Assembly (NCBI GenBank): GCA_017499595.2
Contig: CM039000.1
Location: 3,658,001 to 3,722,000, forward strand
Direction: 5' to 3'
DNA: 64,000 nucleotides
From: Psilocybe cubensis
Lineage: Eukaryota
Part shown: piece by piece, positions 10,682 to 34,251 of the stretch
Position numbering within the stretch: the first letter of the stretch is position 1
Layout of the letters: every line of letters starts with the position of its first letter
The notes under the pieces: model-generated
Databases searched by the model: none
What the model was told of the DNA's origin: nothing
The model's input: the letters and a program-made list of their open reading frames with translations, nothing else
Position numbers and translations under genes: made by a program

Positions 10682-10726
10682 TCAATGTCTTGGCCCTTGG
10701 CAATTCCCATTTTAGGCGATTTTGAT
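10682..10726 (+). repeat. 45-bp subterminal direct repeat, left copy
   Basis: TCAATGTCTTGGCCCTTGGCAATTCCCATTTTAGGCGATTTTGAT, identical at 37135-37179. Confidence 0.92.
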
Positions 10727-12742: not shown

Positions 12743-12839
12743 TTTCTTCCATCCTTAGTCAAATTTTTGTTCGAAATAAACTTGTGTTCTCGTCCTCATT
12801 CTTTTCGTCTTAATTTGTAAGTTTGACTTGCGGATGAGC

Positions 12840-13019
12840 GTGGGAGAATCCTGCGTACACTGTACGCAGGATATTCCCACGGTCAACCTCTCCCGATATT
12901 CAGCCGAGTGTGGGAATATTCTGCGTACAGTGTACGCAGGATTCTCCCACGGACTTCCTCGCCGATATTCAGCCGAGTGTGGGAATATTCTGCGTACAGT
13001 GTACGCAGGATTCTCCCAC
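12840..13019. repeat. Array of three 41-bp palindromes (12840-12880, 12910-12950, 12979-13019)
   Basis: GTGGGA(AT/GA)AT(C/T)CTGCGTACA-S-TGTACGCAGGAT(AT/TC)TCCCAC; periods of 70 and 69 bp with similar spacers. Confidence 0.95.
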
Positions 13020-13164
13020 GGGGTGCCAACTAACACCTTCAGATAATTTCTGTCATGAAAATGACTTGACAAATTATTCCTTGTTATTCACAATGTTCTC
13101 GCAAATAAATTGATTGTTCGTTTAGCACATTTATGATATCCTTGTCTTTCTATGTACGTATGTA

Positions 13165-14398
13165 TTAATCTTGGGACATAGTATTGCTATTGTGGACTGT
13201 GTCCTCGTTTAAGCGCATACGTGCCATCCTCTGTTGCGTGTCTTCAATGTCAATCTGACCTTCGTATAGCTGCCTCTTTGTCCTACGCAAAACAGCGACC
13301 TGTCTTTTCGCTGGAGTATAGCGCGACCGCATTCTGAGAATATCAGCTTTCTGTTGGAAGTTATGAATGGCTATGAGACTGTTCAACGTAACATTGCTTA
13401 CCTCTCTTGCCTCCTGGTCCAAGACAAGTATTCCGCGAAGAGCGACAACGAATTTGTACTTGTTTTCTTGGGCAGGAAATGCGACAAAGGCAACACTGAT
13501 CTCGACAATGTCTCCAATTCGTATGGAGGCAGGATTATAAGCATAATATCTGTTGCAACATGATGTTAGTTTGGTTGTGATGCATTGTTGGTATTTCCTA
13601 AACATACCTGGCTGTTCCGTCAGGAAGTATCTCCCGACGAAGAAACTGTACCTCGTTATCGATCGCGTGGATGAAACCGTCCCCTACCATGGACGCCAAC
13701 ACGTTATCAGGGTCGACCAGGGGATGAAAACCTATGTTGTCAGATTCGTCTTGATATGCGGATACCTTCGTGAAATATCGGCTATGCGCATGGAAAACGT
13801 TGAAACCCGTGTCTTTGTGAAGAACTGGGTCATAGCCGCTGACGCTGTCCGCGGGAAAATTGTTTGTGAAACGGAGGAAAACTTCTTCTAGCTTTTCCAT
13901 CGCCTTATCGAACGCAATGTCTCCGAGTCCCGTGATAGCAATGGCGGTACGTAAATATGGTCGTTGCTTGACCATTCTGTCGCGGCTGTAACACAGTGTT
14001 AAGTCCTCATTCGTAATTAATTCACCTCAATGGAGTGGACGTACGAAGCAGGCTTTGCCATTGGTGGTAGAATCTTTTCCCTAACTATGCCTTGGAGTCT
14101 GAATATCACTTCGTCCATTGCACCGATATCCACGTCAAAGTCGGACACCCTCCATGATTTGGGCGTCAAGAATTCGGTGATTTCATACTTCTGTATCTAC
14201 ATGAGTCGTTAGCAAGTTTTTGAAGCTTAGCAATTGAATTCCTTACATCCGCGTCGCATAATTGAACGTGGCTGGGGTTCAATCGTTGTTCGTTCACTAT
14301 TTCTTCAAGTTTAAGTTCTGAATCTTGATCAGCTTTTGTACGCATGAAGAATGAAAGGACAACTCACTCGCGGCGTTTATGTCGTAGTTCTCGTCCAT
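13165..14398 (-). CDS. Multi-exon cargo protein, putative OB-fold / ssDNA-binding-like
   Basis: Joinable exons MDENYD..., EVIFRLQGIVREKILPP, AIAITGLG...HSRYFT...DNEVQF, PASIRIGDIVEISVAFVAF...VALRGILVLD. The fold call is inferred from the beta-strand pattern. Confidence 0.55.
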
Positions 14399-14807
14399 TG
14401 TTAATGACGTTCCAAGGGTGTCAAAGTACTTCTGTATCGTGCTCAATCAAATCACACTTGATATATTATAATGTATGCCCGCCCCCCCTATTCTTGCTGT
14501 TCTTCATTTATGCCCCCTGTTCTTGTGGATCTTCATTTTTATCTTTCTTGGTACGATCATTCGCACCATGGTCTTTGGATATTCTCTTCAAGCGATCACT
14601 AAAATTGATCAGTCATTCCTTTGAGAATTCCAATATTTCTGCTGGGTCAAATTTCTTCCTGCTCTCCTGTTTACTTCGCGTCTGAAAGATTCGATGGCCC
14701 TGATCGTTATCTACATCCAAGCCAATTGATTTGGCATATATTCTCTGTTCTCCCTCTTCTCGTCCTTGTCATCCACGCTTTGACTTTCCCTAAGACTTCG
14801 TCCTTAA

Positions 14808-17780
14808 ATGCCTCCTAAAGCTAAAAAGAACGCTGATACTGCTGCTTTGGCAGTTTGACTTCCGTTGCCAGCTCTTGCTGTCCCTCCTGTTAGTGCAGCG
14901 CCCCCTGCTCGAAAGGTTGCCAACAAACGAGTTGCTGCGGCGAAGGTTGTCAAGTATGTACCTCTGTTATTTTGTTCCCAAATTTAACTTACCTTTATCT
15001 TCGTTTTTCTCCTTAGAAAAACTGCTGACATGGACGCCCAGGTTAAGAGAGCTGCCCCAAAAAAGAAAACAACGTACAGTGTTTTTATTCGTCTTGCTAT
15101 AAGTCTGTTGTTGACCATTGTGTGCTTTTAGTAAACCTGCGTCCAATGTTGTTGCTCAACAGCCCCCTTTGTCCGAAGTCCCTCCTGTACAGCCCAAGAA
15201 GGACCATGTGACTGTCAGTGAAACGAAATTCAGGCCTGGGTACGTTTTCTTTCGTTTTATAGATTGTTTTGCGCTCTAAACCTATTTTTTTAAATAATAT
15301 TCGCACTTTTTATAGAAACCCCATGTACGTTTCTCCTTCGGGCAATTACGTTTCGTTTCTAATGAATTTCTATATCAGGCTTCGCCAAGGAGCTCCCGCA
15401 GCGGCGACGGTCAACGCGGTCGAAGCTGATGAGGAATATGAAGGGGCGTCTGATGCAGAAGAGGTGGTTACAGACGGTGAGCTGCGTGACGAGGATGATG
15501 ATGATGATGACCACGACGACGACGACGACGAAGATGAAGAGGAGCAAGGCGGTGACTCCGAAGACCTCGATGACTTCATTGAAGATGATGAAGACGCACT
15601 TGAGGACGAAGAATACGAGGAGGAAGAGGAGGAAGACGAAGACGACAAAGATGTTGAAGATGACTTGAACAATCTTGAAGAGCAAGGAGGTATTCTTACT
15701 GACGAAGGAGAGGACATTGAGGAGCCAATTAAAAAGTTTGTTATCATTTTCACTGTCTGGTCAATTATTGATTGAACATCATCAGCGTCCCCGCACCTCC
15801 CATCGACGAGTGAGTCTTTTACTCACTTATTGGTATTTTTTCTCTCACTGTATTGTTTCTAGTGTCTTTACTTCCGCCCCAACTCTCCGGAAATCCCGCA
15901 AGATCAAAAGGCCGAGGGAGTCTACCCCTACACCTGAGTTTCCTACGCAGTATGTTATTCATCAGTTATACGGATTTTCAAGTCGTACTGATATGGCTGG
16001 TTTTTTTTTTAATCTCAGTGGGTCACAATTGCCAGCAACACCCGCAACTCCGGTTGCAGATAGGTCTCCGTACGTTACAATTAATTTGATTTGAACTTTG
16101 GTTTTTGTTGACCCTAGCGGTGCAGTACCAAACGTATGCGCACGGAACCTCCGCCTACGCCTTCTCCGACGAAGAGGGCCACCCCCAAGAAGAAAGCCAG
16201 CGAAACTCCTGCTACTCCTGCCAGGCGATCAGCCCGCAAGGCCGCTGCAGAAACTCCGTCCTCCAGGATGAATGCTCTTTCTATCGTCGATATTGGAACT
16301 CCTTCTTCGATCCCTGAAAGCAAATCTCCTTCAAAAAATACCCGCAAAGTGTCGACACCTCGTTCCAAGATTGCGAAGAAGTCTCAGGCACCCAAGGCGG
16401 GAACTGTTTCTGTTGCTACCGACAATGACACTGTTGTTGTGTCCGCCCCCGTTACAGCCAGCGCTATTGCTCCTGTTGTCACCAGTGCCGCTATTCCGGC
16501 TCCCAGTGTTGTGCCACCCGCCCTGGGACCACGTAGCCTCCGAAATCCTGCTCTTTTGGTATACAACTCCGATCTCAATAGTGTTCAATCAGCGTACGTG
16601 TTCTCCTTTATTTTGTGACATGAGCTTACACATACATTCGTATATCATTCAGGGCTTTGCCATTTGCGTGCGAGGTTTCGGTTGGAATTACTAGAGATCC
16701 CGAACTCGAAGTGAAAGGATGTTACAAAAACCTTCCACACCTCAGGTAAACCTCAAATCATATGCGACACAGCACACATGTTGACAGATAGTGCAGGCAA
16801 ATAGAGACCTTTAGCAACGTCGACACCACTCAAGTTCATGGGCTGGTGGGCTTCAGTCAATTGCAACAGTGGCATGGCGCGAATTTTCCCTCCAGGTAAG
16901 TCGCTTATGTGTCATTATTTGCCGTCCTTCGTGATATATCTCCCAATGGTAGTTTCCTTGCATCCTTCCTCAACTTTTCCATTGAGGAATGTTTCGCCAA
17001 TCTTGGTCGCGTTAGCCCTTTGCTATTGAAGTCACAGTCCATGTGGGGACAACGTTACGAACTTCGAAACGCATCTGGAGAGCCGTTACAGTGCCTAACT
17101 CCAATTGTGACAACGTCCTCGTTTCTTCACGAAATGAATCCTCGATTGACATGGGGAGGCCATTACGTCCAAGGGGTTCCGATGGCATATTGGTGGGACC
17201 GGGCTTTGGCTGTCATCGGGATGGTAACCCATCAACCAAAGTTAGAGGTCCCTTCCTACCACAACGCGATACAATTTACCACCAAGAACAAACCGAACGA
17301 CAAAAGTGGTAAGTACCATAATTCTATTTGGCTATGTGACATTCCTGACTACCGCACATAGCAGATGAACAAATGAGCTCTACCGCGCAGACACTTCCTA
17401 AGTCGCTTTTTACAACCGCACCGGCGGTATCGCTCAAGACGACTCCTCAGCCCAAGAAAAAAGCCACAATGTTGGCTTACAGCGAAAAATGTGAGTCCTC
17501 AGTTTATCCCGTTATTTATTGCCAAGTTTAATACGTCGCGGCAGTTCCCATTTATGATTTGCGTACTTTGTTGAAAGATTTTCCTGAGAAGACTTTCACC
17601 AAGGAGATGCTGGAAGACAGAGATTTATATCTTCCTTTGTGGAATGAAATACCCTATGGTTCGTTGGTCATTATGTCCCATATGATTCACATCGCACAAC
17701 CTGCGACCGGTGGAAATCATTTTAAATTGTTCAACTATGCACAGTGGGGATTTTTGCTGTCCAGTCCAACTGTTGACTAG
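14808..17780 (+). CDS. Multi-exon cargo gene: K/P/A-rich start, long D/E tract, P/S/T-rich linker, beta-rich C-terminal domain (possibly OB-like); possible early stop
   Basis: ORFs 15269-15775, 16136-16618, 16909-17361 and 17559-17780 are separated by GT-AG introns. C-terminus VPIYDLR...LPLWNEIPYGSLVIMSH...QWGFLL. In-frame TGA at 14856. Confidence 0.55.
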
Positions 17781-17979
17781 AGAGTGGGTTGCAAATATGT
17801 ACCTACTCTTCGCTTTTAATTCTACATAAAACAATCAAAGTTTGTTTTACTATCTATGGCATTCAAATTCTGTTATTCTGTGCCGTTTCAAGTGGTTTTG
17901 AGGTGGTTGGACCATAATGTATTGGTGACGTCGACATGATATAAAATCAAATTGGACACAGGGGTGACGTGCTGCCACC

Positions 17980-18020
17980 GTGGGAATATCCTGCGTACAG
18001 TGTACGCAGGATGTTCCCAC
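17980..18020. repeat. Single 41-bp palindrome (stem extends to 17977-18023)
   Basis: accGTGGGAATATCCTGCGTACAGTGTACGCAGGATGTTCCCACggt. Confidence 0.95.
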
Positions 18021-18286
18021 GGTCATCCTGTTTATGAACTTGCTTAACTGAGCGTCTATTTGATGCTCATGCTATCCAGCTTTAAGATCTCTATTCATAT
18101 TCATGCCATACACGAAATAACATTTCCTTAGTTTTGCAGCTGTCATATAAACTCCTTAGTTATGCACCTGTCATATAAACTTGAACAGATACACTTGCCC
18201 TAAAGTCGTGTTTTTTTTTTTCATCATGATGTTTCATTTCCTTTCTTTCACTTTTCACTTTCTTCGTATCTCTCAAACGATTCAGA

Positions 18287-19658
18287 ATGGACAGCTCCAC
18301 GTTACAATCAGCCAATAACCATTCCCCCATCGATAATACGACATCTACCGATGTCTCTGCGAAGGATTACATCGAATTCGTGCGACAATCGTTATCAAAC
18401 GACTCTCCCTATCTCATCGCCTTGCGAGACAATCCGTTACCAACTTGCATGGGTTGTACCAACGTCAGCAAAGAGTGCAAGGGCATGAATCCCATTCGAT
18501 GCCAAAGATGCATCATCTTCAAACGTGTTTGTGAGAAGAAGAAGTCTTATATCGTACGCTCTTCCATTGCCCATTTTGGAATGACCGAAACTGTCGCCTC
18601 CGAAATGTATGCGCTTCATGCGCAATCCATAAAGACAAAACACAATCTGAAACTATCTGGTACAACTGAGGATGCTTCTGGCTCGCGTGCGGCCATGTCG
18701 CCTTCCATTTTCCCTAAAGGAATGCCACCACCGACAGATCCCTTCTTCGCGCTATCGGATAAAAATCTTCCCTCGTCAAAGCGAACCTCCTCTCCTTCAA
18801 CTTCAACAGGCCTTCTTCACCAATCCGGACTTCCGAAAACGGAGCCCGTCGACAGTGTTATGACCGCTGGTAACGAAAACACCAACATGCCTTCAAAGAG
18901 GAAGCGGTCGCTCGCAGATGATACCCAGAGCCGAGTATTCAGCCCTCCTGCACAACACCGCGGTCATGAACACGGAGGTTATTTCAGCGACATCTCGTCT
19001 GTTGGAAGATTTGATCCCAGAAATGCGCGGCCTTCTAATGGTGATGACGAACAGGCTAGCAAGGGGAACGATGCCGATGACGATGGCGAAAACCACAGCT
19101 TGCGCGGGAGCGACTTCAAGGATTCAAATGACGAGGACTCTGATTCCACAGAGGCTGATGAAAAGGAACGAGCCGCGAAAAAAGTTCGTCTGAATGCTGC
19201 TGAGCGAGCACGATCCGATTCCAGGGGTGCAACTCCTGAGGATTTTCTCCATCCTCTCAATTTTGGATACCATCGCAGAGCCATGAAAGACAAAGTGGCA
19301 AGGTGCAACAAGTTCAACAAGGAGGCTCTAGATTCCGCGCAGACAGAAATCGATCATTTAAAGTCGCTGTTGGAAACCACCCAAAAGCACTCCTCCTTCC
19401 TTTCTGGTGAGGTCAACAAATTGAGGCAAGACGTACAGCTTCTTAACGAGAACAACATCAATTTGTCTACTGCGTTGCATATGTCAAGGTTGGAGATCAA
19501 GGCGATACAAAGGCGGTTGTCCGAAGTCGTTGTCATTGAAAAGGTGATGTATAAGTCTTGTCCGCAAGTGATGAAGACTAACTAACTCTTTTTGTATGTG
19601 ACAGGCAACCAGAGGTTTCCATATTTCCTCTCGTACCTTTGAACGGGAAGAAGCTTGA
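18287..19658 (+). CDS. Zn(II)2Cys6-motif protein with C-terminal coiled coil
   Basis: CMGCTNVSKECKGMNPIRCQRCIIFKRVC = CX2CX6CX7CX2CX6C; heptads in IDHLKSLL...VNKLRQDVQLLNENNINL; basic patches KRKR and KKVR; probable terminal intron near 19544-19604. Confidence 0.7.
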
Positions 19659-20086
19659 ATTGTTGTATTTGCAGTGTCTTTTTTTGGCTTTTCTTGGCAT
19701 TCGGCGAACTTCCAGCCTGTTGTAAATACATTATCGATGTCATATTTAAACTTTTAACTTTTTGTTGATGTTTCTACGCCACCGCCAGGATCAATCCGCA
19801 TGTGCCTGCCCTAAACGATGTGCCTACTTAACTTCGTCCTGTGTCAAGAATTTTTTTCCCTTCCTTGCCTGTTCTTGTAACTCTGAGGAAAATCTTTCGT
19901 GTTATAGCTATTTTCTTTTCATCTGCAGTTATTTGATCTAAGTCTCATACAGTCAGGTACGAGTTCATGATCTCGGTGCTTTTAGATTCCACGCGTAGTA
20001 TTTGAATTTCATTGCAAATTGGGACGGGATTACCTATTTAATGTCAGAGCGGAGTGACTGATTTCATTTATTATCAGCAGAAAATT

Positions 20087-23000
20087 ATGAGTGACTGTCC
20101 GGAGGACACCCTCAATCAGGAACGCCCCAACATGGAACAGTCTGAACAATCTGACCAAGATATGATGTCGGTGGACCGAGATAGATCATCGTCACCCGTT
20201 ATGGAAAACGAGGATCAAGACCTTCTTCGATTATGCGATCGGTCCAAAGAGTTCGTTCATTGTTGTAATCTGCTGGCTAAGTTGTCGCTAACTGTGCACA
20301 TTTCGGTAGTTTCCGGTCTTCTTCGATGCCATTGCTCTGTTTTCCTTGGTTCACCGATGTCATTGTTTCACCGGAATTGCTCAGTGAGGCCGTGCCCCAA
20401 AGCGATTGGGTTCTGGTGCGCTTCATTATTTTCTGAAGGGGATTTATTGTTAATTTTACAAATGTGCAGACGATGGCCAACAAATTGGATGTATATACAG
20501 ACCGCGTCGTGAACGAGAAGTCACACGAGTTCATCGCCATGCACGATTTCTTCAAGCTTGCCCCTGGGCACCCAATGAAGCTGCCTAACAAGAGTAACTT
20601 TGTTAATCTGACGGGGCTTATGGTCGGTTACCGCGTTTTCGATATATATGCCCAGGTTCGAGGACTGCACAAGGAGAGAGAAGTGGTTATGCACAAAAAG
20701 CTCAAAACTGCGACAGGTCCCACACGTGTATGCCCCTACGCAATCTATTTGGTGATCTTATTGACCCATTTGTGATAGTTCTGGAATTATTTAGATAACT
20801 GGCAAAAGGTCCTCCTGGACGCCAAAAAATCACTCAAGAGTCTTCGATTATTCTCATCGCCCACATCTTCCGATAACTCACAAGGGAGTAGCCCACTCTG
20901 TTCTCTTTTGTTGCATATGTCGCAACTGCAAGGAGCTTCGAGAGGTATAATTATTTTGCAAAACTTTGTTTTGGCTTGCCTTTCTGTTGCCCTCTTGCGG
21001 GATCCGAAATTTGAAACTATCGATCTGCCAAAGAGCCCGATGGAATTTTTCGAAATCGTCAATAAGTAAGTCTTTTTTTCGGTCAAATATACAGACCTTT
21101 AACGGTGATATCAAAAGTCTCGTCCCAGACAACACTAGATATGATTTTACCGAAAATGTCTTGACATCAAACCGCAACCACGATGTGAGGAACCCCTTGA
21201 CACTTGCAGCATTGTGTAGCCCACTTTTTCTTCTTGTCGGAGGGTCCCTTGTCGCCCATCACTTCGACAAAAAGGAATTATTTTTGGTCAGTTTGATTCC
21301 CGTCATGGTCAGCTCTTTATAACGTAACCCTTTCAGACGGCCAAATCAATTGGGAACGATCTGGACTCAAACCTCAAAGAGGTTGTCTCGGGTCTTTGGG
21401 AAGTAATCTTTGACTGTGCTGAGGGGAAATCTCAGCCAGCAACAGCCTTGATCTCCTGGCTAGAGGGTTTGCATCTCGATGACATAGATGATGGCGGATG
21501 GTATCACGAAGGTTTGTTTAGTTTGCGATTTACACATTAAATCTCACTCACAATTTCATATTTCAGGAGATAGCAGCGAAAGCTTGGACAATGTTCTCGC
21601 TTTCAGCTTAGCAGGGAACACGGTCCCCGCTTCATGGCAACAAACTGTTTTTGTTGCCGAAGGTTCTTTATTTTGCAATTCACATTTCATCAGATTACTG
21701 ACACTTGTAACAGTTAACAAGCGGGCGCTGCTTACGTCTGGCCCAACCAACCAACCTTCTACCTCCAACGCCACGGGAGGGAATGCGGCAGACGCGATTC
21801 CACAGGAGACAGCACCACACACACAATCGAGCCAGGGGAACGACCCGCCGGCCACTCCGGGCGTCAATCCAACGTCGACGGAAGGTCGCAATCAGGTTGA
21901 AAACAAGACCATGGACGATGACGCAGCGGGTGAATCCGGCCTGCCTGAAATGCCTGCCCAAACGGCAGGCCAGACAGATAATACCTCTCCGACCACTTCT
22001 GATCCCACTCAAGGCAAGGAACCGGAACCCCCAAACTCCACAACTGGTCAGAACGCGTGTGACGACGACGCCGACAAGGACTCTGACTCTGACTCCGACT
22101 CCGACTCCGACGCGGACGTGGACGCCGACAAGGACAAGGACGAGGACAAGGGCAACGCCGCCGACAACAACGCCGACGCCGACATCCAAAAGGCCGCTCC
22201 CACGTCGCCACCTGTTGTGGGAGGAAAACGAAAACGTCCAAGTCTGAAAAAGCGTCTTCTTTCAAAGGTGCAGGTTCCTCGCGTGCAAATCCGGTACACC
22301 ACTGCAAGGCCTGCTCCCCGTGCATCCAAGGTGGCCGTGGTCAATCGATTCCTTAGTGGCTGTACTGCGGAGGTCAAGGTTGAGGCAATTGATATTGAAG
22401 ACCTCAAGGTCTGCGACGTCTGTCTTTTATTCACCACAAAACTGATTTTATACTTAGGTTGACACAGAACTACCTATTACCCTTGACAATACGAAGCAGA
22501 AGGTGTGTGCTTCGTTATGTCATCGTTGGGCGTTTACCTGAAACATGGTTTTGTTAGAGAGTCTTGTTCAAGCAATCAGAATGCCTTGTTGTTTTCGACG
22601 GACAGGGCACAGAAATTCAGCTCAGGCCTGCCTTTCATGTAAGCTTTATATCCTACGTTAAGCATTCTTAATCAATGATTTCCATCTCAAGTGCGGTATC
22701 TACGCCAAACTCCTAAAAGATGCTGTTCAAGCTGCGTCGCAGGCGAATATCGACGGCAAACCGGTGCATGCTGCAAGTCCTTCAAAGTCCAAGATCGTCG
22801 TCATGGATGACTTGTTTTTCAATAACAGTCATCCGCCTAAACGCAATGCAGCTTTGCAGAACGGCGTCATAGTCGTTTTAGGATGCAAGCTACGAAACAT
22901 GTCGTTTGATCTCGACAGCCTTTCAAGGATATGTGACATCCACAAAGTCATATCAGTCCAGGGTAATACCATTTTTCATATGTTATATTTAATGTTTTTA

Positions 23001-24816: not shown

Positions 24817-25006
24817 TGGCAGGCTTTTGTTCCATTTAGTCCTTCACATCTGTCGTATACCTACCTCACTCGTTGATTTTCGTTGTATCACAAAAAAAAT
24901 TACAATGCATATATTTCGCCTCTTACATTTGAAAGCAAAGTGAACTTAATTTTACACTACTAGTCCAAAATGAAATGACATCGTACTTCCCGTCCCCCAT
25001 CTAAGT

Positions 25007-25167
25007 GTGGGAATATTCTGCGTACAGTGTACACAGCATATTCCCACACCGCACATGACCTGGAGCGTGGGAATATCCTGCGTACACTGTACGCAGCATG
25101 TTCCCACACTGCACATGACCTGGAGCGTGGGAATATCCTGCGTACACTGTACGCAGCATGTTCCCAC
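25007..25167. repeat. Array of three 41-bp palindromes (25007-25047, 25067-25107, 25127-25167), 60-bp period
   Basis: Same palindrome family; ends 27 bp from the Rep-helicase stop codon. Confidence 0.95.
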
Positions 25168-25194
25168 ACTGCACATGACCTACAGCTTGCCATG

Positions 25195-28100
25195 TTAAGC
25201 AGAAACTTTGTGGTATAGGTAGAGGAATAATTTCTTTTGACGACATGTCTTTAACCATGACATGTCCGATTGCAGATTGACTACCTGTTCAAAAATACAT
25301 TTATCGCCTGTCGTGATACCGTCATGAAACCATACAGTACCATTGCTTTCAATGGTTCTGCAAGAAAAGTGCTCACTACCACTATATACCAGTCCACATA
25401 AGCGCATTTTGTGATGGTTTCCGTCTACATCACATATGGTCATTTCTACGACTGGTTCAGGGAGGCAGTGCGTTGGGTTCACATTTTCAATCCCCATTAA
25501 TGATGGTACAGATTTTATTTGGGTAATGTTAGTGAGAATATGTTTGTTCGATTCATTGCTGCAACGTCGGCATTCTTTGTTGCTAACATACTCTGCACAA
25601 TAATTGAATATGTCTGTTATCTTTGTGTTATCGTTTTGGCTGTTTGGATTTATTATATTTAAAGCACTGAACCGCAAATTCATTGGTGCTGAGCTGTAGC
25701 CACAGGCTGTACAATGATAACTCCCTTCTCCACATTGCTCGGTTCCTAAGAGATGCAGACACAATGAATCCATTGACGTCAAAGCCTGGCCATAAGGAAA
25801 TGTTTCTTCGCCAATGTCATTGTTTAGCTTCCGCCGTACTACATCTCTTGCCATTTGCAAGTTACTAAAGCCCAACGACATTTTGATGAATTCGTTTATA
25901 AGGGTATCCATATACATACTGTGGTTTCCTGTCAACCTGTTGTTCCACAACAGCACATTGCTTTTCCACAGATGGTAAATCAATGTGAACACTGAGTCAT
26001 AAGCGCAGCTGAAGTTGACGTTATCCCACTTGACGCCGAGTGGTGCCTCTGCTTCTTCCAACTCCACCCTTGTCTTTTTATTTAACGGTACCATCATGTC
26101 AGGTTGTGGGGCGGATTGTGTGTTTGGTCTTAACATTTTCTTTTTGGTTTTTCTTACAATTGGAGTAATTGCTGTTAACATATTAACTTGCTCATTCCAT
26201 AGCGCATTGTCTTTTGGCTGGCTGTCTGATATCTCATTTGGGGACATTTGGAGAGCTGGGTGCCAATCATGGCTGTCGTCGCGACCTTTGGACCATTCTC
26301 TATAGCTTTTGATCAAAGTATTACGCAGTAACCCGTTGACTTGATCGTTTAATTCAGAGTTATATTTCAATTCTGTAATTTTATTTAACTGTTCCAATTC
26401 TCTGAACTCTTGGCGTAGGTGACCACTGATTCCTTTTGTAATTTTAAAAGAATCAAATCCTTGAAGAATCACAGTTCCATCTGCGCTCGCACTTCTGGAA
26501 AGACATGTATAATATGATTGATGAGTTTTGCAATTCCCGAGATCTACTACATTTAAGGGTCTGGTTTTGCCTTGGCTGGCATAGTCCGTCATTGCAAAAT
26601 TGGGAAGTACATGTATTTGTTTTCTCATTACGTTTAATTCGGTACCATTGGGCATCTGGCAATTTACGCGTATATTGTGTCTATAAATGGGTACTACATT
26701 TTCTTCCAGCCCAGGAATATTTACAGTTTGTGGTGGATTTATCAATTTCACGTACAATGTCGCAAGACATGGTTTGTTATCAGGACTTATTTCACTATCC
26801 CACCCACAAACAACACCCTCTTGTCCTTTCGTAATGCAAAGTTCGGTTGCGTAATTATGTCGAATCATTACAGGCATACCTAGACATAGCGAAAGTTTAC
26901 CAGGAATATGCTCACTACTACTTGGGTCCAAGTTCCATAACGCTTCCTTGTCAATGTCGTCCAATTTTGATCTCTTACTTTTGTTGGATGTTTTACGTTT
27001 TCTTTTATTGTTTGGAAGGTCATCGTCGTCGTCTTTAAAGCTGTCAACGGCATAAAAATCTGTCAATTCTTGCCCTGTGTCTTTCGCGAACCGAACGCAG
27101 CCCAGGATATTTATTTTATCCTTTTGAACATTCCACGCTGTTATAATCGACACATTCCTGAATTTTGGTTCTCTCACGCTCGGCCTTCCTTTCACTGAGC
27201 TAGATGTTCTGGAATGTAGAAATTCGATGTCTTCAGGAGTGCAGGCTGCATATCTCATATTTTCCAAAGCAGTTCTCAACTTTGAGTCTTGTGGAGATTG
27301 ACTTCTTTGACGCATATTTTTCTTTAAGATTACAACGGTTGTTATCTGATGCCATAATATCTTCCCAATCGTACTTTCTTGCTTGCGTACTGACATACTT
27401 GCGTCTTGTTTAAGGGCGACATCGTTGCTGTATAAATATGATCCATTGACAGGTGGTAGTTGAGCAAAATCTCCAGCAAAAACCATATTCATTCCTCCGA
27501 AAGGTTGGTCATGTACGTTTGTGAGTATGGCCAACTTTGAACTAATGGCGTATAATTCGTGGCAGCTAATCATAGAAACTTCGTCAACAAAGATGTATTC
27601 TACACCGGCTAATTTTTGTCTCAATTCATTTATGGAGTTGGCTGTACTACCACTCGTTCCTGCCTCCTTATTACCCATAATATGTATTCCTAACGCTGAA
27701 TGATAAGTCGATCCATTCAACAACGCTGCGGCTGTTCCAGTAGGAGCCAGTACAATGAATCGATGACCTTCATTTCTTTTCTTAAACATAGATATAATGG
27801 CTTTGATTACTTGTGTTTTACCGGTTCCACCCATGCCTCCTAGATACATCTTCAATGGGTCTGCATATATAGTGGATGCATGATTAGCTACCAGCCTGAA
27901 TGCTCTCTCCTGATCCTTATTTAAAGAAAATTCCTTTACAGTCGAATCAATTATTTGTTTGGGGTCAAGGCACTGTTTTGCAACAAAATCACGCTGAAAC
28001 CATGAAGCATTCACAAGCTTTACTTGATTTGGCACCAGTTCTTCCGTGTTAAATCTTCCAGGACCACTTGATGTGGCAATATTCCTCATCTTATCTTTGA

Positions 28101-31100
28101 TGATTCTATCTCGAGCTTCTTGTAGTGTGTTTTTCCATTGTGCTGCAGATTTTTCTACTGCGGGAACAAATCTTTCAGTATTGAGAGAGGGGATTTCTTT
28201 GCTCTCTTCTGTCCAACCACATTTTTTTAGAATTCTGTGTGCTTCCTCTTGTTGTTGTAACTTTCGGGTTGCTTGTTCTGATAATGATTTGTATCGGTCT
28301 TCTCTTTGCTGATACCCTTCTGATATATACTCTTCTTCCTCTTCTTCTTCATCTGAACTTTCATCATAACCCTTACGAAGGGCAGCCTCTTTGACTTTGC
28401 GCTTTAGTTCACTGTGGAAGTCATCCCTAGCATCTAGACATTCATACTTCAAATTTAAATTAGTCATTATCTCAAGATCTTTTTGTTCAAAGCCGTGTTG
28501 ACGAAATGCATCACTCCAACTTTCTTCTTTACTTTTCAAATCCAGTGCGGTTCGCCAAGGTTTAAATAGTGTCAGCATAGTCATGCAGTAATACTCTCTA
28601 TCTCCGCAATCAGAGTGGGGCAACGCTCCACCCACAAAATTAGGTATTGTTGTTTGTAGGCAAGACAGATCAACAGTAACTTGGTGGCTTCGAAAATGAG
28701 GGTGGCTTGGCATGAACGATTGTTTAGTGAACTTTCTTGAAGGAGCATCCACATCTTCCCACTCGTTATCTTCGATGCCTGATAGTTCTTCTAGAGATTC
28801 ATCAAAGGCTTCTATGTCTTTCTTGCTTCGCTTCTTTTTGCTGCTGGTCTGAATCCATTGGATCACAGACATTCCATCGCATTTCGTTGGTCTGTTTTTG
28901 TAGTCGTCAATGTTAGACTTGCCAACGTATTCACCCTCTTCTCGACTGATCAGTACTCTGTCTTCAAATTCCGCATCATCGCTAGTTTCCATTGCTGGAT
29001 TGTCTTGGGCAACATCGCCATGTCCTTCTTCCCAGGTTCTCTTAACCTCTGCAACGTAACTTCTCCACCACAGGGGCACAAAGGTATGACTTGTGTAATG
29101 ATCTGGGTTATCCAAAAGATATAAACACGCCATTGGACTTCCAAGTTCGGTTTTCGATGACAATGCGTTGACAATCTTTAGTACAAGTTTTCTACCCGCT
29201 TCAATGGGTGCATGTAAATTTCCTGAAATTAACTCAGAGTTCTTCGAATAGATGTCATAAGCGGAAGAAAATATCTGATGTGTTTTGAGCGTTGGCTTTG
29301 TCACATAATCCGTAACATATGAGATAATGGCTTTGATACTTGTCCCTGATAGAAGGCTGGTAACATCTGTATTGCAACGGGTAACATAAGTTAAACAATC
29401 AGAGACCGTATTCATCATAGATTCTAATTTCTTCATATATACGTGGCCGTCGGTTTCATCCACTATTGTTTCTGTTCTCACTTCACGAGGAAAACGTGCC
29501 ATACAGACATTGTCTTTGTTAAGGCATCCCTTTTGTCCGTTTCTAGCAGCCTTACCAATGGGACCATCTGTTTTTGGTAGCTCAGATTCCTTGACGGGTG
29601 TATCATGCACCTCTGTATTAGTGCTTTTCTTGGTACCTTTGGGCGGTCTCAATTTTGTTGATGCTCTACAACTATGCATATTGGACCTGAACAATAAATC
29701 GTCCACAGTAGAAGTGTAATTGTCCTTCCATTGCTTGTATGTTGTGCAAGGAGCACAATTCTGATGAATGGTATAAATTTTGTCACTTTCTTTGTGATGA
29801 TCGCGACATGGATCCGGGGGGGGGATGGGTAATGTCTGTGTCGGGTCTTGATACATCGACAAATCAACCTTGTTGAGTTGAAGAGAGTTCTCAGTTGGTT
29901 TCTTAATGGTATGGATACCTGTGTTGGTGGTACTTAGTGAAGGTAACCTCGCTTCAATGCTTTCCTTGGTCCCATTTAAAAATTGGCCAATGTGTGATGA
30001 CTCTAGATAGTCTACCAATGCTCTTTGAAAATCAGAATCTTTACTCATAAGCTTATTGCGTATATCCTGCGGAGATAACGCCCCTTCAATCCATAACATC
30101 ATGTGCAAATGTAAAGTTAGACGACCTTGTTGCTCAACAGTGCCATAGTACGCTGATGTTTTACCGTACAAGCCTGGGTGATCCGTTCCTACTCCAAGAA
30201 CATGCTTGATGACCATTTTCACCATAAAATCAAAGAAACGGGCCGCTGCAACAGGATTGGAGAGTACCAATAAATCACGAATTTTGGCGGATTTTAGCTC
30301 CGGAGAGAAACTGATGTCATCTGCAGCGTAATATAAGCACAAGGGATGCCTATTATCTGCGGGCGAAAACGTAATAAACCATGAAGGAGCACCTTTGAAA
30401 GCTACTAGCGACCAAATTTCATTACGCATGTATTTCTTGTTCGTCAGTGACCCCGGTACCTTACCCCCAACATGATCCAAATCATTCAAAATGCTAAAGC
30501 AAAGTTTCTCTGAATCTGTTTCCGGCGTTATATGTTCTCCCTCTGCCATTCTCTGAGAAATTGATTCCAATACTCCCGGATTTATTTGCACAAGTCTTTT
30601 TGCCACGGAATCAAAATTCTTTCGCTTGGCTAGCAAGAAGCTACCTGTAGTTCCTCCTCTAATTTGTTCTTCATTGAAAGCAACCATAGGAAAATACAAG
30701 TCACGTTGGAAACGCTTGTCGTGATACATTAGCAGTAGTTTTTTGTGCCGCGCATTCGATAATTTCTTTTTGTGGCGTGGCTGTCCAATACCTCCTTTTC
30801 CGTACGGAAATAACCAAGGAAACATTTGAGGATACAGTTGAGGATTATTGTACCATGATTGCGGAGTATTATCATGGCCGATAGCCAATGAAACACCACC
30901 GCTATCCAAATGCTTCAGCGCTCGCACTTTAAGATTTTGCAAAGACATTTTATCGTACTCCTCACCCGTCAACCCGTGAACTGTAAAAGGACATACACCT
31001 TCTTCTGTACCTTCTTCCATTTCATTATCAAATTTGCTCATTGCGGTCGGAATTTTATTGGAATCACTGTAAGTGACTTTGTAATCCACGATGACGGGTA

Positions 31101-33495
31101 CTCCTGCCAAAGGATATGAATTCAAATTATCATAAGATATTTCAAGGTCGGCATAGTCAGAGTGGTTCAACTTAAGCCATTCTAAAGCTTTGGCCACAGC
31201 ATTACGCCTAACGAACATTGGTGTTCTTTTAAATTCCTCGTCTGTCGGTCGTGTCGGCCCTATGAAAATGAATGCCAGGACGTCGCTCAACTCTTCTTGA
31301 CTAGGAGGTAAAGCCTTGTATACTTTCAAAGTAGGGTTCGCAAACATTATACAATTGGCAATCATTTTTGCCCTACCCGATGACACTCGTACTAAACATC
31401 GGTTATGGCGAACCCGCGATATCATCATTTGTTCGGCAAAAGTTAAATTCTGTAATACGGGTGGAACTTCTCCAACCCAAAGCCCATTCGCCAAAGATTC
31501 AGTGGGTATTTTACTCTTTTCGACACATTTATGACATTTCGGACAGATACGTTCACATCCGTGCGCCAGCACCGGACCAGGTACATCTTCAATAGGGTCA
31601 CTTGCTGACGAACGCTCTTTCCTAGTTATCCCGGGAACCTGTAACACATCTAGTTCATAGGATGGAGGAATTGGCATCAACATTTTGAGTTGGACAAGTT
31701 GTCCGCATACGGCGCATCCTGCCTCTTCAAACTCGCCAGGATCCATGTCTTTACAGAATCCAGATATAATTTTGCGTACCAATTCATCGTTCACCGGTTT
31801 GGGAGGAAACATGCTGGGTGATGGCGATGATGTGGTATTTTGAGGCTTTGAACGAGGTTTCTGTTCCTTTCGCCAAATCTTTTTGACATTAGCTCGGTGT
31901 TCTTTTATCTGCTGTTTGCTGTTTCCCTTTTGAAATACAAAATAATGAAGCTGACAATTTTTGCAAGAATGGCCTTGGTATCTGGCCATATTCTGTACTT
32001 TTGAATGATGATTATTGAAAGGAATGTTGTGTAATTTACTTAAGGCAACGAGTTCGTCTCTCTTCAATAAAGGGCATATCAAACTTAATGGGGTCTGTGC
32101 AACAATGAACTCCCCGTTCGTAATGAAGTTTTCCAGTTTGTCCTTGCCGACATAATGTTTCAGAACATAAGTGTCAGTTGGATTCAATTCAGCATTGATG
32201 GGATATACCACAAAATCAGATATATCGCTTCCTTTTAATGACTTTACAATCCTTCCACCACCCATAAGCGCAGGATGAGAGGGCACAGGTCTTTTGTTGT
32301 CGGCTACTATTGATTCTACACTTGAATTGTCTTTTAAACACATGATTGAGAGTAAAGCACTATCGAGATAGTATATAAGTAAGTGAAATGAATCAGACAT
32401 TGAATTGTTTTGTAATATGTGCCAGACATATCCCATTTCAAATGCAATACAATCTGCCACGTCGTCTGCAATGATTTGAGAAACACAAAGAAATAAAGCT
32501 TTTTGTAATACAGTTCTCGCTTTGCTTATTCCCATCCTGAACACGTAATTAAGGAAAGCAATGTAGTATGTAGTCAATATAAACAAGAGATCTACGGCGT
32601 TCAAATTGAAAGTGATATTCCTTATAAATATGATTTCCTCGTTGACTCTGTTCATCAAATTCCGTATGTGTTTAATCACCGGACGATCCATGATTAACAG
32701 ATGAAAGCAATGAGCTATTGATAGATCGCTGTTAAAATAAAGGACCATATATGTTATAAGATGGAAACACTGTCGATCTATCCAACAGAGGGTTTTGCCA
32801 TACTTCGAGACAACTTGAATAACTGATAGATGATATTTTTCAAACGAAGCTACTTCCCTTATGGACGTGCAAGCTCTTTGAAAAGCATTTTGGAAATTTC
32901 CAACTTTACCTATCATGATGTCGAAATCATGACGAGAAGTAATATATCTCGACATGTAAAGCTTAATGTAAAGTATTATGGTAGATATACGATCGTGCAT
33001 GTTATGCTGCAAGCAATAGAGTTGGATATTGTAAGGGCGTACATAACTGTCAAAATTTAATGTCGCCAACTTGGATAGTACCCAAGTTACGAATGACTTC
33101 AGTTCTGGAAACCACAAATTTTCTGTCCACGGACATTCTTCGCCAGAGAAATGTGTGAAAAAAGAGAGGCCGTGTGTTATATCAATTGTGGACGAAGTAG
33201 CTAAAGGTTTGACAACGTGAATCACAGTGTAGTGCGGATGTATGATTGGGTTAACCATATCGACAGTACTTTGGTTTACAAAGTGTAAATTTTCGACGCA
33301 ATGGTGTCTTGCTTCATGTGTCAGGGGCTGATGCATCATCGAACAAACGATGTCGTGACCAAGTGTGGCTCTATGTTGTTGGTGTTGATGCATCATTGAA
33401 TAAACAATGTCAAGAGAGTATCCATGTACGTGAAGTACAGGATCGAGATAGGTATTGGTGACATCTCGCTGTTGTGGCGCATTAACCAACAACAA
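25195..33495 (-). CDS. Helitron/Helentron-type RepHel: HUH (Y2) Rep + PIF1-family SF1B helicase + C-terminal USP-like Cys protease; intronless, first ATG at 33396
   Basis: Rep motifs WFITFSPAD, VEQQGRLTLHLHMMLW, YVTDYVTK. Helicase motifs GMGGTGKT, APTGTAA, FVDEVSMI, GDFAQLPPV, MRQ, TDYASQGKT, YTCLSR. Protease-like motifs SCAYDS and EHFSCR...WFHDG. Confidence 0.95.
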   Translation of the reverse strand: MLLVNAPQQRDVTNTYLDPVLHVHGYSLDIVYSMMHQHQQHRATLGHDIVCSMMHQPLTHEARHHCVENLHFVNQSTVDMVNPIIHPHYTVIHVVKPLATSSTIDITHGLSFFTHFSGEECPWTENLWFPELKSFVTWVLSKLATLNFDSYVRPYNIQLYCLQHNMHDRISTIILYIKLYMSRYITSRHDFDIMIGKVGNFQNAFQRACTSIREVASFEKYHLSVIQVVSKYGKTLCWIDRQCFHLITYMVLYFNSDLSIAHCFHLLIMDRPVIKHIRNLMNRVNEEIIFIRNITFNLNAVDLLFILTTYYIAFLNYVFRMGISKARTVLQKALFLCVSQIIADDVADCIAFEMGYVWHILQNNSMSDSFHLLIYYLDSALLSIMCLKDNSSVESIVADNKRPVPSHPALMGGGRIVKSLKGSDISDFVVYPINAELNPTDTYVLKHYVGKDKLENFITNGEFIVAQTPLSLICPLLKRDELVALSKLHNIPFNNHHSKVQNMARYQGHSCKNCQLHYFVFQKGNSKQQIKEHRANVKKIWRKEQKPRSKPQNTTSSPSPSMFPPKPVNDELVRKIISGFCKDMDPGEFEEAGCAVCGQLVQLKMLMPIPPSYELDVLQVPGITRKERSSASDPIEDVPGPVLAHGCERICPKCHKCVEKSKIPTESLANGLWVGEVPPVLQNLTFAEQMMISRVRHNRCLVRVSSGRAKMIANCIMFANPTLKVYKALPPSQEELSDVLAFIFIGPTRPTDEEFKRTPMFVRRNAVAKALEWLKLNHSDYADLEISYDNLNSYPLAGVPVIVDYKVTYSDSNKIPTAMSKFDNEMEEGTEEGVCPFTVHGLTGEEYDKMSLQNLKVRALKHLDSGGVSLAIGHDNTPQSWYNNPQLYPQMFPWLFPYGKGGIGQPRHKKKLSNARHKKLLLMYHDKRFQRDLYFPMVAFNEEQIRGGTTGSFLLAKRKNFDSVAKRLVQINPGVLESISQRMAEGEHITPETDSEKLCFSILNDLDHVGGKVPGSLTNKKYMRNEIWSLVAFKGAPSWFITFSPADNRHPLCLYYAADDISFSPELKSAKIRDLLVLSNPVAAARFFDFMVKMVIKHVLGVGTDHPGLYGKTSAYYGTVEQQGRLTLHLHMMLWIEGALSPQDIRNKLMSKDSDFQRALVDYLESSHIGQFLNGTKESIEARLPSLSTTNTGIHTIKKPTENSLQLNKVDLSMYQDPTQTLPIPPPDPCRDHHKESDKIYTIHQNCAPCTTYKQWKDNYTSTVDDLLFRSNMHSCRASTKLRPPKGTKKSTNTEVHDTPVKESELPKTDGPIGKAARNGQKGCLNKDNVCMARFPREVRTETIVDETDGHVYMKKLESMMNTVSDCLTYVTRCNTDVTSLLSGTSIKAIISYVTDYVTKPTLKTHQIFSSAYDIYSKNSELISGNLHAPIEAGRKLVLKIVNALSSKTELGSPMACLYLLDNPDHYTSHTFVPLWWRSYVAEVKRTWEEGHGDVAQDNPAMETSDDAEFEDRVLISREEGEYVGKSNIDDYKNRPTKCDGMSVIQWIQTSSKKKRSKKDIEAFDESLEELSGIEDNEWEDVDAPSRKFTKQSFMPSHPHFRSHQVTVDLSCLQTTIPNFVGGALPHSDCGDREYYCMTMLTLFKPWRTALDLKSKEESWSDAFRQHGFEQKDLEIMTNLNLKYECLDARDDFHSELKRKVKEAALRKGYDESSDEEEEEEEYISEGYQQREDRYKSLSEQATRKLQQQEEAHRILKKCGWTEESKEIPSLNTERFVPAVEKSAAQWKNTLQEARDRIIKDKMRNIATSSGPGRFNTEELVPNQVKLVNASWFQRDFVAKQCLDPKQIIDSTVKEFSLNKDQERAFRLVANHASTIYADPLKMYLGGMGGTGKTQVIKAIISMFKKRNEGHRFIVLAPTGTAAALLNGSTYHSALGIHIMGNKEAGTSGSTANSINELRQKLAGVEYIFVDEVSMISCHELYAISSKLAILTNVHDQPFGGMNMVFAGDFAQLPPVNGSYLYSNDVALKQDASMSVRKQESTIGKILWHQITTVVILKKNMRQRSQSPQDSKLRTALENMRYAACTPEDIEFLHSRTSSSVKGRPSVREPKFRNVSIITAWNVQKDKINILGCVRFAKDTGQELTDFYAVDSFKDDDDDLPNNKRKRKTSNKSKRSKLDDIDKEALWNLDPSSSEHIPGKLSLCLGMPVMIRHNYATELCITKGQEGVVCGWDSEISPDNKPCLATLYVKLINPPQTVNIPGLEENVVPIYRHNIRVNCQMPNGTELNVMRKQIHVLPNFAMTDYASQGKTRPLNVVDLGNCKTHQSYYTCLSRSASADGTVILQGFDSFKITKGISGHLRQEFRELEQLNKITELKYNSELNDQVNGLLRNTLIKSYREWSKGRDDSHDWHPALQMSPNEISDSQPKDNALWNEQVNMLTAITPIVRKTKKKMLRPNTQSAPQPDMMVPLNKKTRVELEEAEAPLGVKWDNVNFSCAYDSVFTLIYHLWKSNVLLWNNRLTGNHSMYMDTLINEFIKMSLGFSNLQMARDVVRRKLNNDIGEETFPYGQALTSMDSLCLHLLGTEQCGEGSYHCTACGYSSAPMNLRFSALNIINPNSQNDNTKITDIFNYCAEYVSNKECRRCSNESNKHILTNITQIKSVPSLMGIENVNPTHCLPEPVVEMTICDVDGNHHKMRLCGLVYSGSEHFSCRTIESNGTVWFHDGITTGDKCIFEQVVNLQSDMSWLKTCRQKKLFLYLYHKVSA

Positions 33496-33762
33496 GGATG
33501 TAGCATACTGTGTCTGGGTGGCATTTACATTGAGTACGTGTCAAATTCAAGGTTATAAATGACAACTCACATAATTGCGGATAATGGAGTATGATCCACA
33601 TAGGATGAAAAGCCAACATGCAATGGCAAATAACTTTATGGTAGTTGGGAGACAAGGAGAACAGATTCGGAAGGGAACGGTACAGGTACTACCATAAAAG
33701 GCAGCATACCTCATGATCGCGACCCGTCGCGTTGGGCCGGAGAGGGGTAACACCGATGTGGC

Positions 33763-33803
33763 GTGGGAATATCCTGCGTACAGTGTACGCAGCGTTCTCC
33801 CAC
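33763..33803. repeat. Single 41-bp palindrome upstream of RepHel (stem extends to 33758-33808)
   Basis: gtggcGTGGGAATATCCTGCGTACAGTGTACGCAGCGTTCTCCCACgccac. Confidence 0.93.
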
Positions 33804-34251
33804 GCCACCCTAACAAGCAAAGACTTCTATGAATCGTAACCCGTTGCGGTGTGCATGGTTTATGATCTCCTACTTATTTACCCGAGAAATATTTCAGGAA
33901 CTTATGGACTCATTCACTTCATAATGAAATAATGTATACCAGTGTTTTTAAAATTTAATGTCTGCGTGGATGGACACAGTTCGGCAATTAATAAGAACTT
34001 TTGGCAAAGTCAATAGCACACTTGCAACGATCTGTTGAATTCCAAAGTGTTCCATTCCAAAGTGTACTCCATGCTATAGGCATGTTATTTTAGCAAGCCC
34101 CTGACCATATCGATCCAATCTTCTCTTTTTCCAATGCTTGTGATCCGATATCAAATGGCCCCCGGAAATATGTAGAGCCGCATAGCCCAGCACAAAAAAT
34201 CTGCGTTATATATCCTAGCCGTGTGTCGCGGGTTTCTTTGGCTGTACTGCG

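Follow-up and report, generated by a model that had tools for sequence, protein, structure and literature searches.

A hairpin-forming palindrome on both sides of an intact RepHel gene in Psilocybe cubensis, a candidate end signal of a Helitron2-type family

An intact RepHel gene of Psilocybe cubensis lies between copies of a 41-nt palindrome that is present in many copies in the genome. The evidence stands about even for the reading that we prefer, namely that an HLE2 family, together with its truncated and non-autonomous relatives, has this palindrome as its terminal hairpin, with tandem duplication adding copies and read-through passing over them.

A motif search of the window, i.e. the whole 64-kb stretch of DNA analyzed here, recovered all eight palindromes described in an earlier note on this DNA, at positions 12840, 12910, 12979, 17980, 25007, 25067, 25127 and 33763. 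The 41-nt consensus matched seven of them with up to three mismatches (0.00 expected from 100 shuffles). The copy at 33763 has four mismatches, all in the outer right arm, and was recovered with a 21-nt core that detects the eight palindromes (expected 0.00 in 100 shuffles). Neither a further whole palindrome nor a solo arm was found elsewhere in the window. The copies are located at four sites. The T1 triplet has a period of 69-70 nt and comprises T1.1 (12840..12880, minus strand), a 29-nt spacer (12881..12909), T1.2 (12910..12950, plus strand), a 28-nt spacer (12951..12978) and T1.3 (12979..13019, plus strand). The T2 array (25007..25167, plus strand) contains three palindromes with a 60-nt period, and its spacers copy the right flank. 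The singletons S1 (17977..18023, plus strand; core 17980-18020) and S2 (33758..33808, plus strand; core 33763-33803) have stems extended by ACC/GGT and GTGGC/GCCAC, respectively. S2 is flanked by the two diverged copies of a roughly 48-nt direct repeat (33691..33854, plus strand; copies 33691-33737 and 33807-33854), as a 116-nt duplication that gave the top score among 56 flank comparisons (z 5.3). According to ORF maps, used here in place of gene models, each triplet lies between convergent ORFs, as previously noted; S1 lies between tandem ORFs and S2 between divergent ORFs.

The two arms of the palindrome are not equally conserved. Across the eight copies of the window, 19 of 20 columns are invariant in the conserved arm and 15 of 20 in the opposite arm, which suggests that one strand or half-site may be the part that is read. 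The outer 6 bp and the inner 9 bp are near-invariant, and the middle of the arm is variable. The conserved arm is on the left in seven copies, which adjoin minus-strand units, and on the right in T1.1, the sole inverted copy, which adjoins the plus-strand gene A. This orientation fits the end-hairpin reading, the argument being a post hoc one drawn from four sites. Inside the 20-bp arms, none of the 20 pairs showed compensatory changes. The singletons do extend their stems with different bases, but the selection on structure proposed on this ground was not supported, since the six flank pairs altered on both sides are equalled in 51 of 500 shuffles (not significant).

No target-site duplication was detected at any of the four palindrome sites, where the flanking bases are complementary and not repeated. 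A MITE mechanism, with the palindrome as a separate element having its own target-site duplications, is therefore unsupported. The flank comparison revealed no common tail beyond the palindrome edges, nothing being shared past about 8 nt except the repeat around S2. We also searched the outward flanks of all eight edges for the canonical Helitron TC/CTRR ends and found no consistent pair. A CTAA on the plus strand follows only two of the four sites, 7 nt after S2 and 11 nt after T1.3, and the next base is C, not T. Outside the palindromes, none of three candidate 3' regions has an inverted match of at least 10 nt to the RepHel 5' region.

The RepHel ORF (25195..33396, minus strand) encodes a protein of 2733 aa and is intact, as judged from its uninterrupted frame and its Pfam domains. 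These are, on the minus strand, DUF6570 (PF20209, 31120-31518, residues 627-759, 7.4e-42), Helitron_like_N (30094-30735, 2.9e-31) and a PIF1 helicase (27286-27924, 2e-28). The HUH motif (H1096/H1098), the two tyrosines (Y1360/Y1364), the Walker A motif (GTGK1860) and the Walker B motif (DE1938-1939) are invariant in 24 aligned sequences, and the relatives returned by a protein search are Agaricomycete proteins. When the single protein and the 24-sequence alignment were compared with prokaryotic genomes and viral contigs, one weak helicase-only match was obtained, in a bacterial MAG; the C-terminal 304 aa had no match among PDB sequences. The claim that palindromes bracket the HUH Rep gene was confirmed for this HUH/Y2 RepHel, with T2 located 27 nt past the stop codon, S2 about 370 nt upstream of the ATG, and S1 on the 3' side (minus strand) of the RepHel-carrying unit. 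Predicted folding energies of the palindromes around the ORF (S2; T2 or S1) range from -15 to -25 kcal/mol. These flanking palindromes are in direct and not inverted orientation; a palindrome can self-pair either way.

The DUF6570 domain, used as a marker in place of a tree, points to RepHel as a probable HLE2 member. In the excerpted text of the HELIANO paper (PMC11417382), DUF6570 is specific to HLE2 and absent from HLE1. Excerpts of other published accounts define Helitron2 by hairpins at both ends, with a 3' overabundance reported for CRe-1 (Bao and Jurka 2013), and describe HLE2 ends as short asymmetric TIRs of 8-16 nt, terminal at the 5' side and subterminal at the 3' side, with T-T insertion without target duplication. 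They also mention FoHeli1/2 of Fusarium oxysporum, in which both ends have hairpins and termini are multiple, and the palindromic subTIRs of mite and Culex Helentrons. As far as these excerpts go, the window shares with Helitron2/HLE2 a DUF6570 RepHel, hairpins flanking the transposase gene, the palindromic subterminal repeats of some families, putative duplicated termini, opposite-strand cargo, and 5'-truncated copies with 3' overabundance. It differs by a palindrome of 41-57 nt, compared with TIRs of 8-16 nt and a short hairpin in the excerpted descriptions. It also differs by the direct orientation of the palindromes and by their presence between cargo modules and in arrays, the hairpin here being a candidate terminus only. 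Canonical Helitrons (HLE1) have 5'-TC and 3'-CTRR ends and a hairpin of 16-20 nt that lies about 11 nt before the 3' end, and they insert between A and T. Common points with HLE1, including Pleurotus HELPO1/2, are in published excerpts a 3' hairpin acting as a stop, an "end-bypass" read-through that explains gene capture, and Agaricomycete elements with cargo genes of unknown function. Unlike in HLE1, our palindrome is twice as long as the hairpin, no consistent 5'-TC/CTRR-3' ends were found, and DUF6570 is present. Short tandem arrays tied to rolling-circle elements are likewise found in excerpts on the HINE/DINE-1 Helentron derivatives, whereas the array unit here consists of a hairpin and a 19-29-nt spacer, with three units per array in the window. 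We consider the long-hairpin arrangement most likely an unusual version of the known Helitron2-type design. In word searches of open-access main text, long palindromes were nowhere described for Agaricomycete Helitrons.

Four public runs supplied reads and contigs for comparison with the locus; the depths below come from X6, X8 and X11. The palindrome had been said to be absent outside the TIRs, which holds in the 64-kb window but not in the genome: in X8 the contigs with palindromes stand at 25-46 times the single-copy depth, and in X6 the summed palindrome depth is about 40 times single copy, compared with single-copy depth for its one contig of RepHel length. A rough estimate from read depth gives a genome total of about 50-100 copies in about 45 Mb. 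The four sites of the window are clustered in 21 kb around the sole RepHel. Most palindromes appear to be embedded in larger high-copy repeats; a 978-nt contig of X8 at depth 998 carries a palindrome. Arrays with T1 spacers recur at other genomic places, the first spacer being found in many X11 reads and in a 55-nt X8 contig (depth 555) and the second likewise in reads of X11 and an X8 contig of 54 nt (depth 531). Since T1 has multi-copy sequence on either side, it may lie inside a single larger repeat. The two commonest foreign flanks in the reads are not present in the window. In metagenomes, a 19-nt core matched five loci, none of which shares the outer arms, and these were discarded as chance matches; an 18-nt arm had no match among viral contigs.

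X8 keeps high-depth palindromes and has zero depth over 27340-33342, most of RepHel, a depth hole that alone is no proof of absence. Almost no words of 17900-27899 were detected in X10, which carries the same species label, and this again is not proof of absence. The X11 reads cover 27340-33342 at a depth of 21-39 and 18669-26672 at 96-143. In two units, copy number climbs stepwise toward a palindrome on the 3' side (minus strand), a pattern that a rolling-circle end signal should give. In the RepHel unit, a breakpoint at 26945 marks the position where the X8 copy departs from the window sequence and where X11 depth drops from about 130 to about 30. Toward T1, X6 depth rises from 9 (14200-16879) to 29 (14095-14229) and then to 331 in a contig covering 14002-14124, which extends leftward beyond the mapped stretch and whose far end is placed near 13000 from its length of 1127 nt. 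The high-copy segment adjoining T1.3 (13020..14124, minus strand) corresponds to the 3' part of gene B.

Module 2 (18021..25006, plus strand) has an X11 depth of about 96-143x and, in other copies (X8 contig 13), is continuous with the 3' end of RepHel. The T2 triplet is absent from this X8 copy of the RepHel/module 2 unit (one contig). It is also missing in 75 X11 reads, which show a joint from 24992 to 25162 with a 4-nt overlap, TCCC. T2 is therefore not a fixed border. The X8 copy stays similar for 156 nt past S1, to 17824, and therefore does not stop right at S1.

Under the end-hairpin reading, the RepHel at 25195-33396 (minus strand) would be an autonomous Helitron2-type copy in an Agaricomycete fungus. 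S2 would be its 5'-side hairpin, and the T2 array, putatively recognized by RepHel, its 3'-side hairpin and the expected stop of rolling-circle transfer. Where T2 is skipped or lost, transfer could continue through module 2 to S1, and module 2 would thus travel with the RepHel 3' end. The gene B unit ending at T1.2/T1.3 and the gene A unit ending at the inverted T1.1 would be truncated or non-autonomous relatives with the same end hairpin. The short arrays of hairpin and 19-29-nt spacer could come from local tandem duplication or from failed termination. Counting against this reading are the length of the hairpin, the direct orientation of the copies beside RepHel, flanks without a common tail, the similarity past S1, the possible internal position of T1, the high palindrome depth of X8 despite its hole over RepHel, and the non-significant covariation. 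The earlier suggestion of Rep origins or terminators survives in part: hairpins on both sides fit the DUF6570 clade and copy number rises to the palindrome, but the motif also occurs away from the element.

The palindrome could instead be an independent dispersed repeat or minisatellite, such as a foldback remnant or a recombination/slippage unit, with no functional tie to RepHel, an explanation that we regard as unlikely but worth serious attention. The excess of palindrome depth over the single RepHel-length contig of X6, also high in X8, agrees with it, as does the zero depth over most of RepHel in X8, where palindromes are kept. The 69-70- and 60-nt arrays and the duplication around S2 indicate local slippage, the T2-less allele resembles a slippage deletion between TCCC repeats, and the arms show no compensatory change. 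Yet four sites in 21 kb, on both sides of the sole RepHel, would be a large coincidence for about 50-100 copies in about 45 Mb; moreover, the sites lack target-site duplications and the depth steps end at palindromes.

We give little credence to the proposal, made in the earlier note, that each inter-palindrome stretch is a separate rolling-circle cassette excised by Rep as a hairpin-joined circle. Module depths do differ in X11 (about 43-53, 96-143 and 21-39) and every palindrome coincides with a contig break, but a word of such high copy number is enough to break contigs. X8 contig 13 joins module 2 to the 3' end of RepHel, X11 depth is the same on either side of the T2 site, and the depth step at 26945 lies inside RepHel, away from any palindrome. 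The only circle-like joints in the reads (18029 to 25004, 18029 to 33763 and 33804 to 25004) match the T1 spacers at 12890 and 12952 letter for letter, so these reads come from T1-type arrays outside the mapped stretch and not from circles. Equally doubtful is the idea that the palindromes are sites for a dimeric DNA-binding protein, as transposon regulator or boundary, or bidirectional terminators between convergent genes. The near-invariant outer 6 bp and inner 9 bp around a variable middle recall two-part operators, and both triplets lie between convergent ORFs. The tandem and divergent settings of S1 and S2 argue against this idea, the arms are unequally conserved, unlike a symmetric dimer site, and Pfam analysis of the ORFs found no candidate binding protein in the element.

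Prokaryotic HUH systems also offer points of comparison. In REP/RAYT, a domesticated single-copy Y1 HUH gene lies between inverted REPs, and hundreds of solitary REPs are extragenic. The likeness with REP/RAYT and BIMEs lies in an HUH gene amid imperfect palindromes, many others elsewhere, locations in intergenic regions or at convergent gene ends, and clusters of mixed orientation. Unlike REP/RAYT, the gene studied here encodes a Y2 RepHel that includes a helicase and, as a mobile-element gene, shows presence/absence differences from run to run; its flanking copies are direct, not inverted. Many genomic copies also lie in larger high-copy contigs or arrays, and on these points the locus does not qualify as a REP/RAYT-like system. 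The likeness to IS200/IS605 elements such as IS608 lies in imperfect hairpins that stand at both ends and keep one orientation on a given strand, where an HUH enzyme reads them as ssDNA; an internal mismatch is part of the signal. Those elements are prokaryotic and Y1, with short hairpins and without helicase, and guide sequences for the cleavage site are not evident here. A eukaryotic counterpart of REP/RAYT-BIME, in which one intact RepHel per genome would serve about 50-100 long hairpins, including arrays of hairpin and about 28-nt tail acting as minimal rolling-circle replicons, so that the hairpin itself spreads, seems improbable to us.

Helitron2-type end signals are poorly described in mushroom-forming fungi. 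Annotation tools seek TIRs of 11-18 nt, and a family with a 41-57-nt palindrome as end signal, which recurs in arrays as well as between cargo modules, would be missed or mis-bounded by them. If the end-hairpin reading is true, the locus would provide a clean substrate for studying how a eukaryotic RepHel recognizes, stops at or bypasses a hairpin, bypass being the step thought to underlie gene capture by Helitrons. The strains would lend themselves to comparison, with RepHel intact in one and present only as truncated copies in others. If the palindromes are unrelated to RepHel, they would be an ordinary dispersed repeat.

The cargo gave few clues. The plus-strand ORFs of module 2 have no family assignment, and Pfam searches of the cargo ORFs (E up to 5) and of 14 gene B homologues gave no credible family. 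Protein searches with a 432-aa cargo ORF and with the ORF reading through T1 had no match. ESM Atlas placed gene B in unnamed Basidiomycota clusters. It also gave, for the ORF at 23491-24525, a weak JmjC-like lead with low recognition and without Pfam support. TIRs of hAT elements start with YARNG, and these elements duplicate 8 bp of target DNA and encode a hAT transposase. Neither a transposase nor a hAT domain was found by Pfam in the ORFs of at least 120 aa of the outer 27-kb element (10242..37284). This outer element has TIRs of about 23 nt (10250-10272 and 37254-37276) that start with CAAGG, and its target duplication is an exact 8-bp one, GAAGTTGA.

Eight 41-nt palindromes had been described in this region by the earlier note, and all eight were recovered with a 21-nt core, at 12840, 12910, 12979, 17980, 25007, 25067, 25127 and 33763; a 41-nt consensus search at up to three mismatches returned seven copies in the window. 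Palindrome searches of 100 shuffles gave no match, and a search of the whole window revealed no additional palindrome or solo arm. The copies form two arrays, T1 (12840-13019, copies T1.1 to T1.3, period 69-70 nt) and T2 (25007-25167, period 60 nt), and two singletons, S1 (17980) and S2 (33763), the latter carrying four changes, all in the outer right arm. Seven copies are oriented alike and only T1.1 is inverted. With T1.1 reversed, 19 of the 20 left-arm columns are invariant versus 15 of 20 in the right arm, so that the palindrome is imperfect and asymmetric in every copy, with conservation in the outer 6 bp and inner 9 bp and mismatches in the middle. All copies fold into hairpins (-15 to -25 kcal/mol, z -4.2 to -8.7), with energies of a size expected for any palindrome. 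S1 and S2 do have stems extended by differing bases, but formal counting lends no support to the selection on structure previously read from this: no compensatory pair was found inside the arms, and six flank pairs changed on both sides, a number equalled in 51 of 500 shuffles. The flanks of the four sites show no relation past about 8 nt, and no direct target duplication was found at any of them. The T2 spacers are copies of the sequence right of the array, and S2 is flanked on either side by a diverged ~48-nt repeat (best score among 56 flank comparisons, z 5.3). About 100 nt right of S1 (18125-18181), a 28-nt unit occurs as two repeats with 93% matches.

The rolling-circle transposase gene RepHel (25195-33396, minus strand), located between T2 and S2, encodes 2733 aa without interruption, with DUF6570, Helitron_like_N and PIF1 domains. 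Aligned with 23 homologues, RepHel shows invariant HUH histidines (H1096 and H1098), tyrosines (Y1360 and Y1364) and Walker A and Walker B motifs. There are 506 database relatives, the closest 63% identical, and those with a name belong to Agaricomycetes (Gymnopilus, Ephemerocybe), which points to a mushroom-forming fungus as host, its own protein being absent from the database. The C-terminal domain (residues ~2430-2733, 25198-26109) is without a match in Pfam or in a PDB sequence search; with C2464, H2676 and D2692 invariant in 24 homologues, its sequence looks like that of a cysteine protease. Residues 1 to ~400 (32200-33396) are hardly conserved among homologues and of odd composition, and translation may in fact begin further downstream. 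According to the HELIANO report (PMC11417382), DUF6570 is specific to the Helitron2/Helentron (HLE2) clade, UCH domains occur in HLE2 subgroups c and d, and HLE2 ends consist of 12-16-nt TIRs and a 3' stem-loop.

Nine listed sequencing runs contain all or part of 17900-27899, and 14000-33999 was compared with four of them, as contigs (X6, X8, X9) or raw reads (X11). Contigs break at every palindrome. In X8, where a single-copy 10-kb contig has a depth of 21.5, palindrome-bearing contigs of 978, 55, 54 and 267 nt reach 998, 555, 531 and 109, respectively, and the summed X6 depth at 17977 is 448 versus 9-12 in surrounding contigs. If depth ratios are read as copy numbers, although contig depth is not copy number, each genome would carry very roughly 50-100 palindromes. 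The two T1 spacers, with at least three and at least two sequence variants, were found in the 55- and 54-nt X8 contigs and in many X11 reads, showing that T1-type arrays recur in the genome. Further palindrome flanks, absent from the window, were seen in the run data, including one that adjoins the palindrome in the 978-nt contig of high depth. Acidic low-complexity coding repeats (GAT/GAC-rich, 15486-15554 and 22079-22184) draw high-depth X9 contigs foreign to this organism, and depth there is meaningless.

One X8 contig follows 17983-24992, jumps to 25162 and continues to 26945 before leaving the window sequence, and 75 X11 reads share this joint. The RepHel 3' end and module 2 (18021-25006, plus-strand ORFs between S1 and T2) are therefore parts of a single contiguous unit, and T2 does not form a fixed border. 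The 169 nt skipped have TCCC at both sides, and the skipping form still contains the tail of the third palindrome and that palindrome's final six letters; we take this form to reflect deletion of the array by slippage, not an empty insertion site. X8 depth is absent over 14000-17334 and 27340-33342, a kind of hole that proves nothing. X11 depths (both mate columns summed) are 43-53 over 14667-17334, 96-143 over 18669-26672 and 21-39 over 27340-33342. Near T1, X6 depth steps from 9 (14200-16879) to 29 (14095-14229) and 331 (a contig covering 14002-14124), the last contig running leftward out of the compared stretch towards T1, with an end near 13000 judged by its length. The 3' part of gene B, the minus-strand gene right of T1.3, is a high-copy repeat (13020-14124; X6 331 vs ~10). 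The depth steps in X11 and X6 indicate that copy number climbs towards the 3'-side palindrome in two minus-strand units, gene orientations being read from ORF maps, not gene models. Gene B has 298 database relatives, many of ~300 aa, and a Pfam scan of 12 relatives of ordinary size found no domain. Position 14071 shows another letter in 514 of 561 X11 reads. A joint at 19146-22081, present in X6, X8 and X11, leaves out 2934 nt, its two sides being separated by 3 letters; it weakly suggests other module 2 copies with an internal deletion, its anchors being short (18-26 nt) and beside a low-complexity acidic repeat.

The simplest account, evenly balanced in our judgement and not proven, treats the palindrome as the hairpin that ends the elements of an HLE2 family. 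S2 would be the 5'-side hairpin of an autonomous RepHel copy and T2 its 3'-side hairpin; read-through or loss of T2 would extend the unit to S1, and adjacent truncated or non-autonomous units would end at T1. Such end hairpins explain why palindromes bracket RepHel, why depth changes in steps, how T1.1 is oriented and why copy number is high. In the parts of the literature consulted, Helitron2 is defined by hairpins at both ends and shows 5' truncation with 3' overabundance (Bao and Jurka); Fusarium FoHeli1/2 carry a hairpin at each terminus and also show duplicated termini and joined ends; the subTIRs of mite and Culex Helentrons are themselves palindromic, with tandem repeats in some copies; and Pleurotus HELPO elements were described as having canonical TC/CTRR ends and carrying genes of unknown function as cargo. 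Against end hairpins, the palindrome is far longer than any hairpin described for the HLE2 clade in this literature, no terminus is defined, the palindromes flanking RepHel are in direct orientation, S1 sits 156 nt inside the X8 copy, and T1 may lie within a larger repeat.

A dispersed palindromic repeat with no tie to RepHel is the main rival; it would fit the excess of palindrome copies and the signs of slippage, but four sites clustered around the one RepHel speak against it, and we regard it as rather unlikely. More improbable still is a set of separate excisable cassettes between palindromes, and we place a protein-binding site at the same low level. The earlier note had proposed Rep-linked hairpins defining rolling-circle cassettes, with hairpin-joined circles as one check. 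Three joints resemble deletions or circles between hairpins (18029 to 25004, 18029 to 33763 and 33804 to 25004), and the letters inside them match exactly those of the T1 spacers at 12890 and 12952. Because T1 lies outside the compared 14000-33999, reads of T1-type arrays split between palindromes inside it; these joints, the only apparent ones, were rejected as artefacts.

The palindromes and RepHel lie inside a 27-kb stretch whose bounds are TIRs of ~23 nt that begin with CAAGG, together with an 8-bp duplication, GAAGTTGA, that is exact (10242-10286 and 37240-37284), an arrangement presumably like that of hAT-like elements; none of the ORFs within this TIR-bounded stretch was identified as a transposase. 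Near its ends are a 45-nt repeat (10682-10726 and 37135-37179, 100% identity) and a 38-nt repeat (10287-10324 and 37198-37235, 76%), both in direct and not inverted orientation, with their order mirrored. The ORF at 23491-24525 falls near JmjC/cupin clusters in the ESM Atlas (0.91, low recognition), with no Pfam match at E up to 5, and the remaining ORFs of the region have no family match. This includes the genes left and right of the palindrome region (11443-12112 and 34372-35039), which are diverged paralogues on the same strand (58% over 680 nt). Another diverged pair lies outside the 27-kb element, inverted on either side (6775-7948 and 38311-39473, 57%), and a tandem paralogue pair is located to its left (1605-3319 and 3832-5537, 59%).
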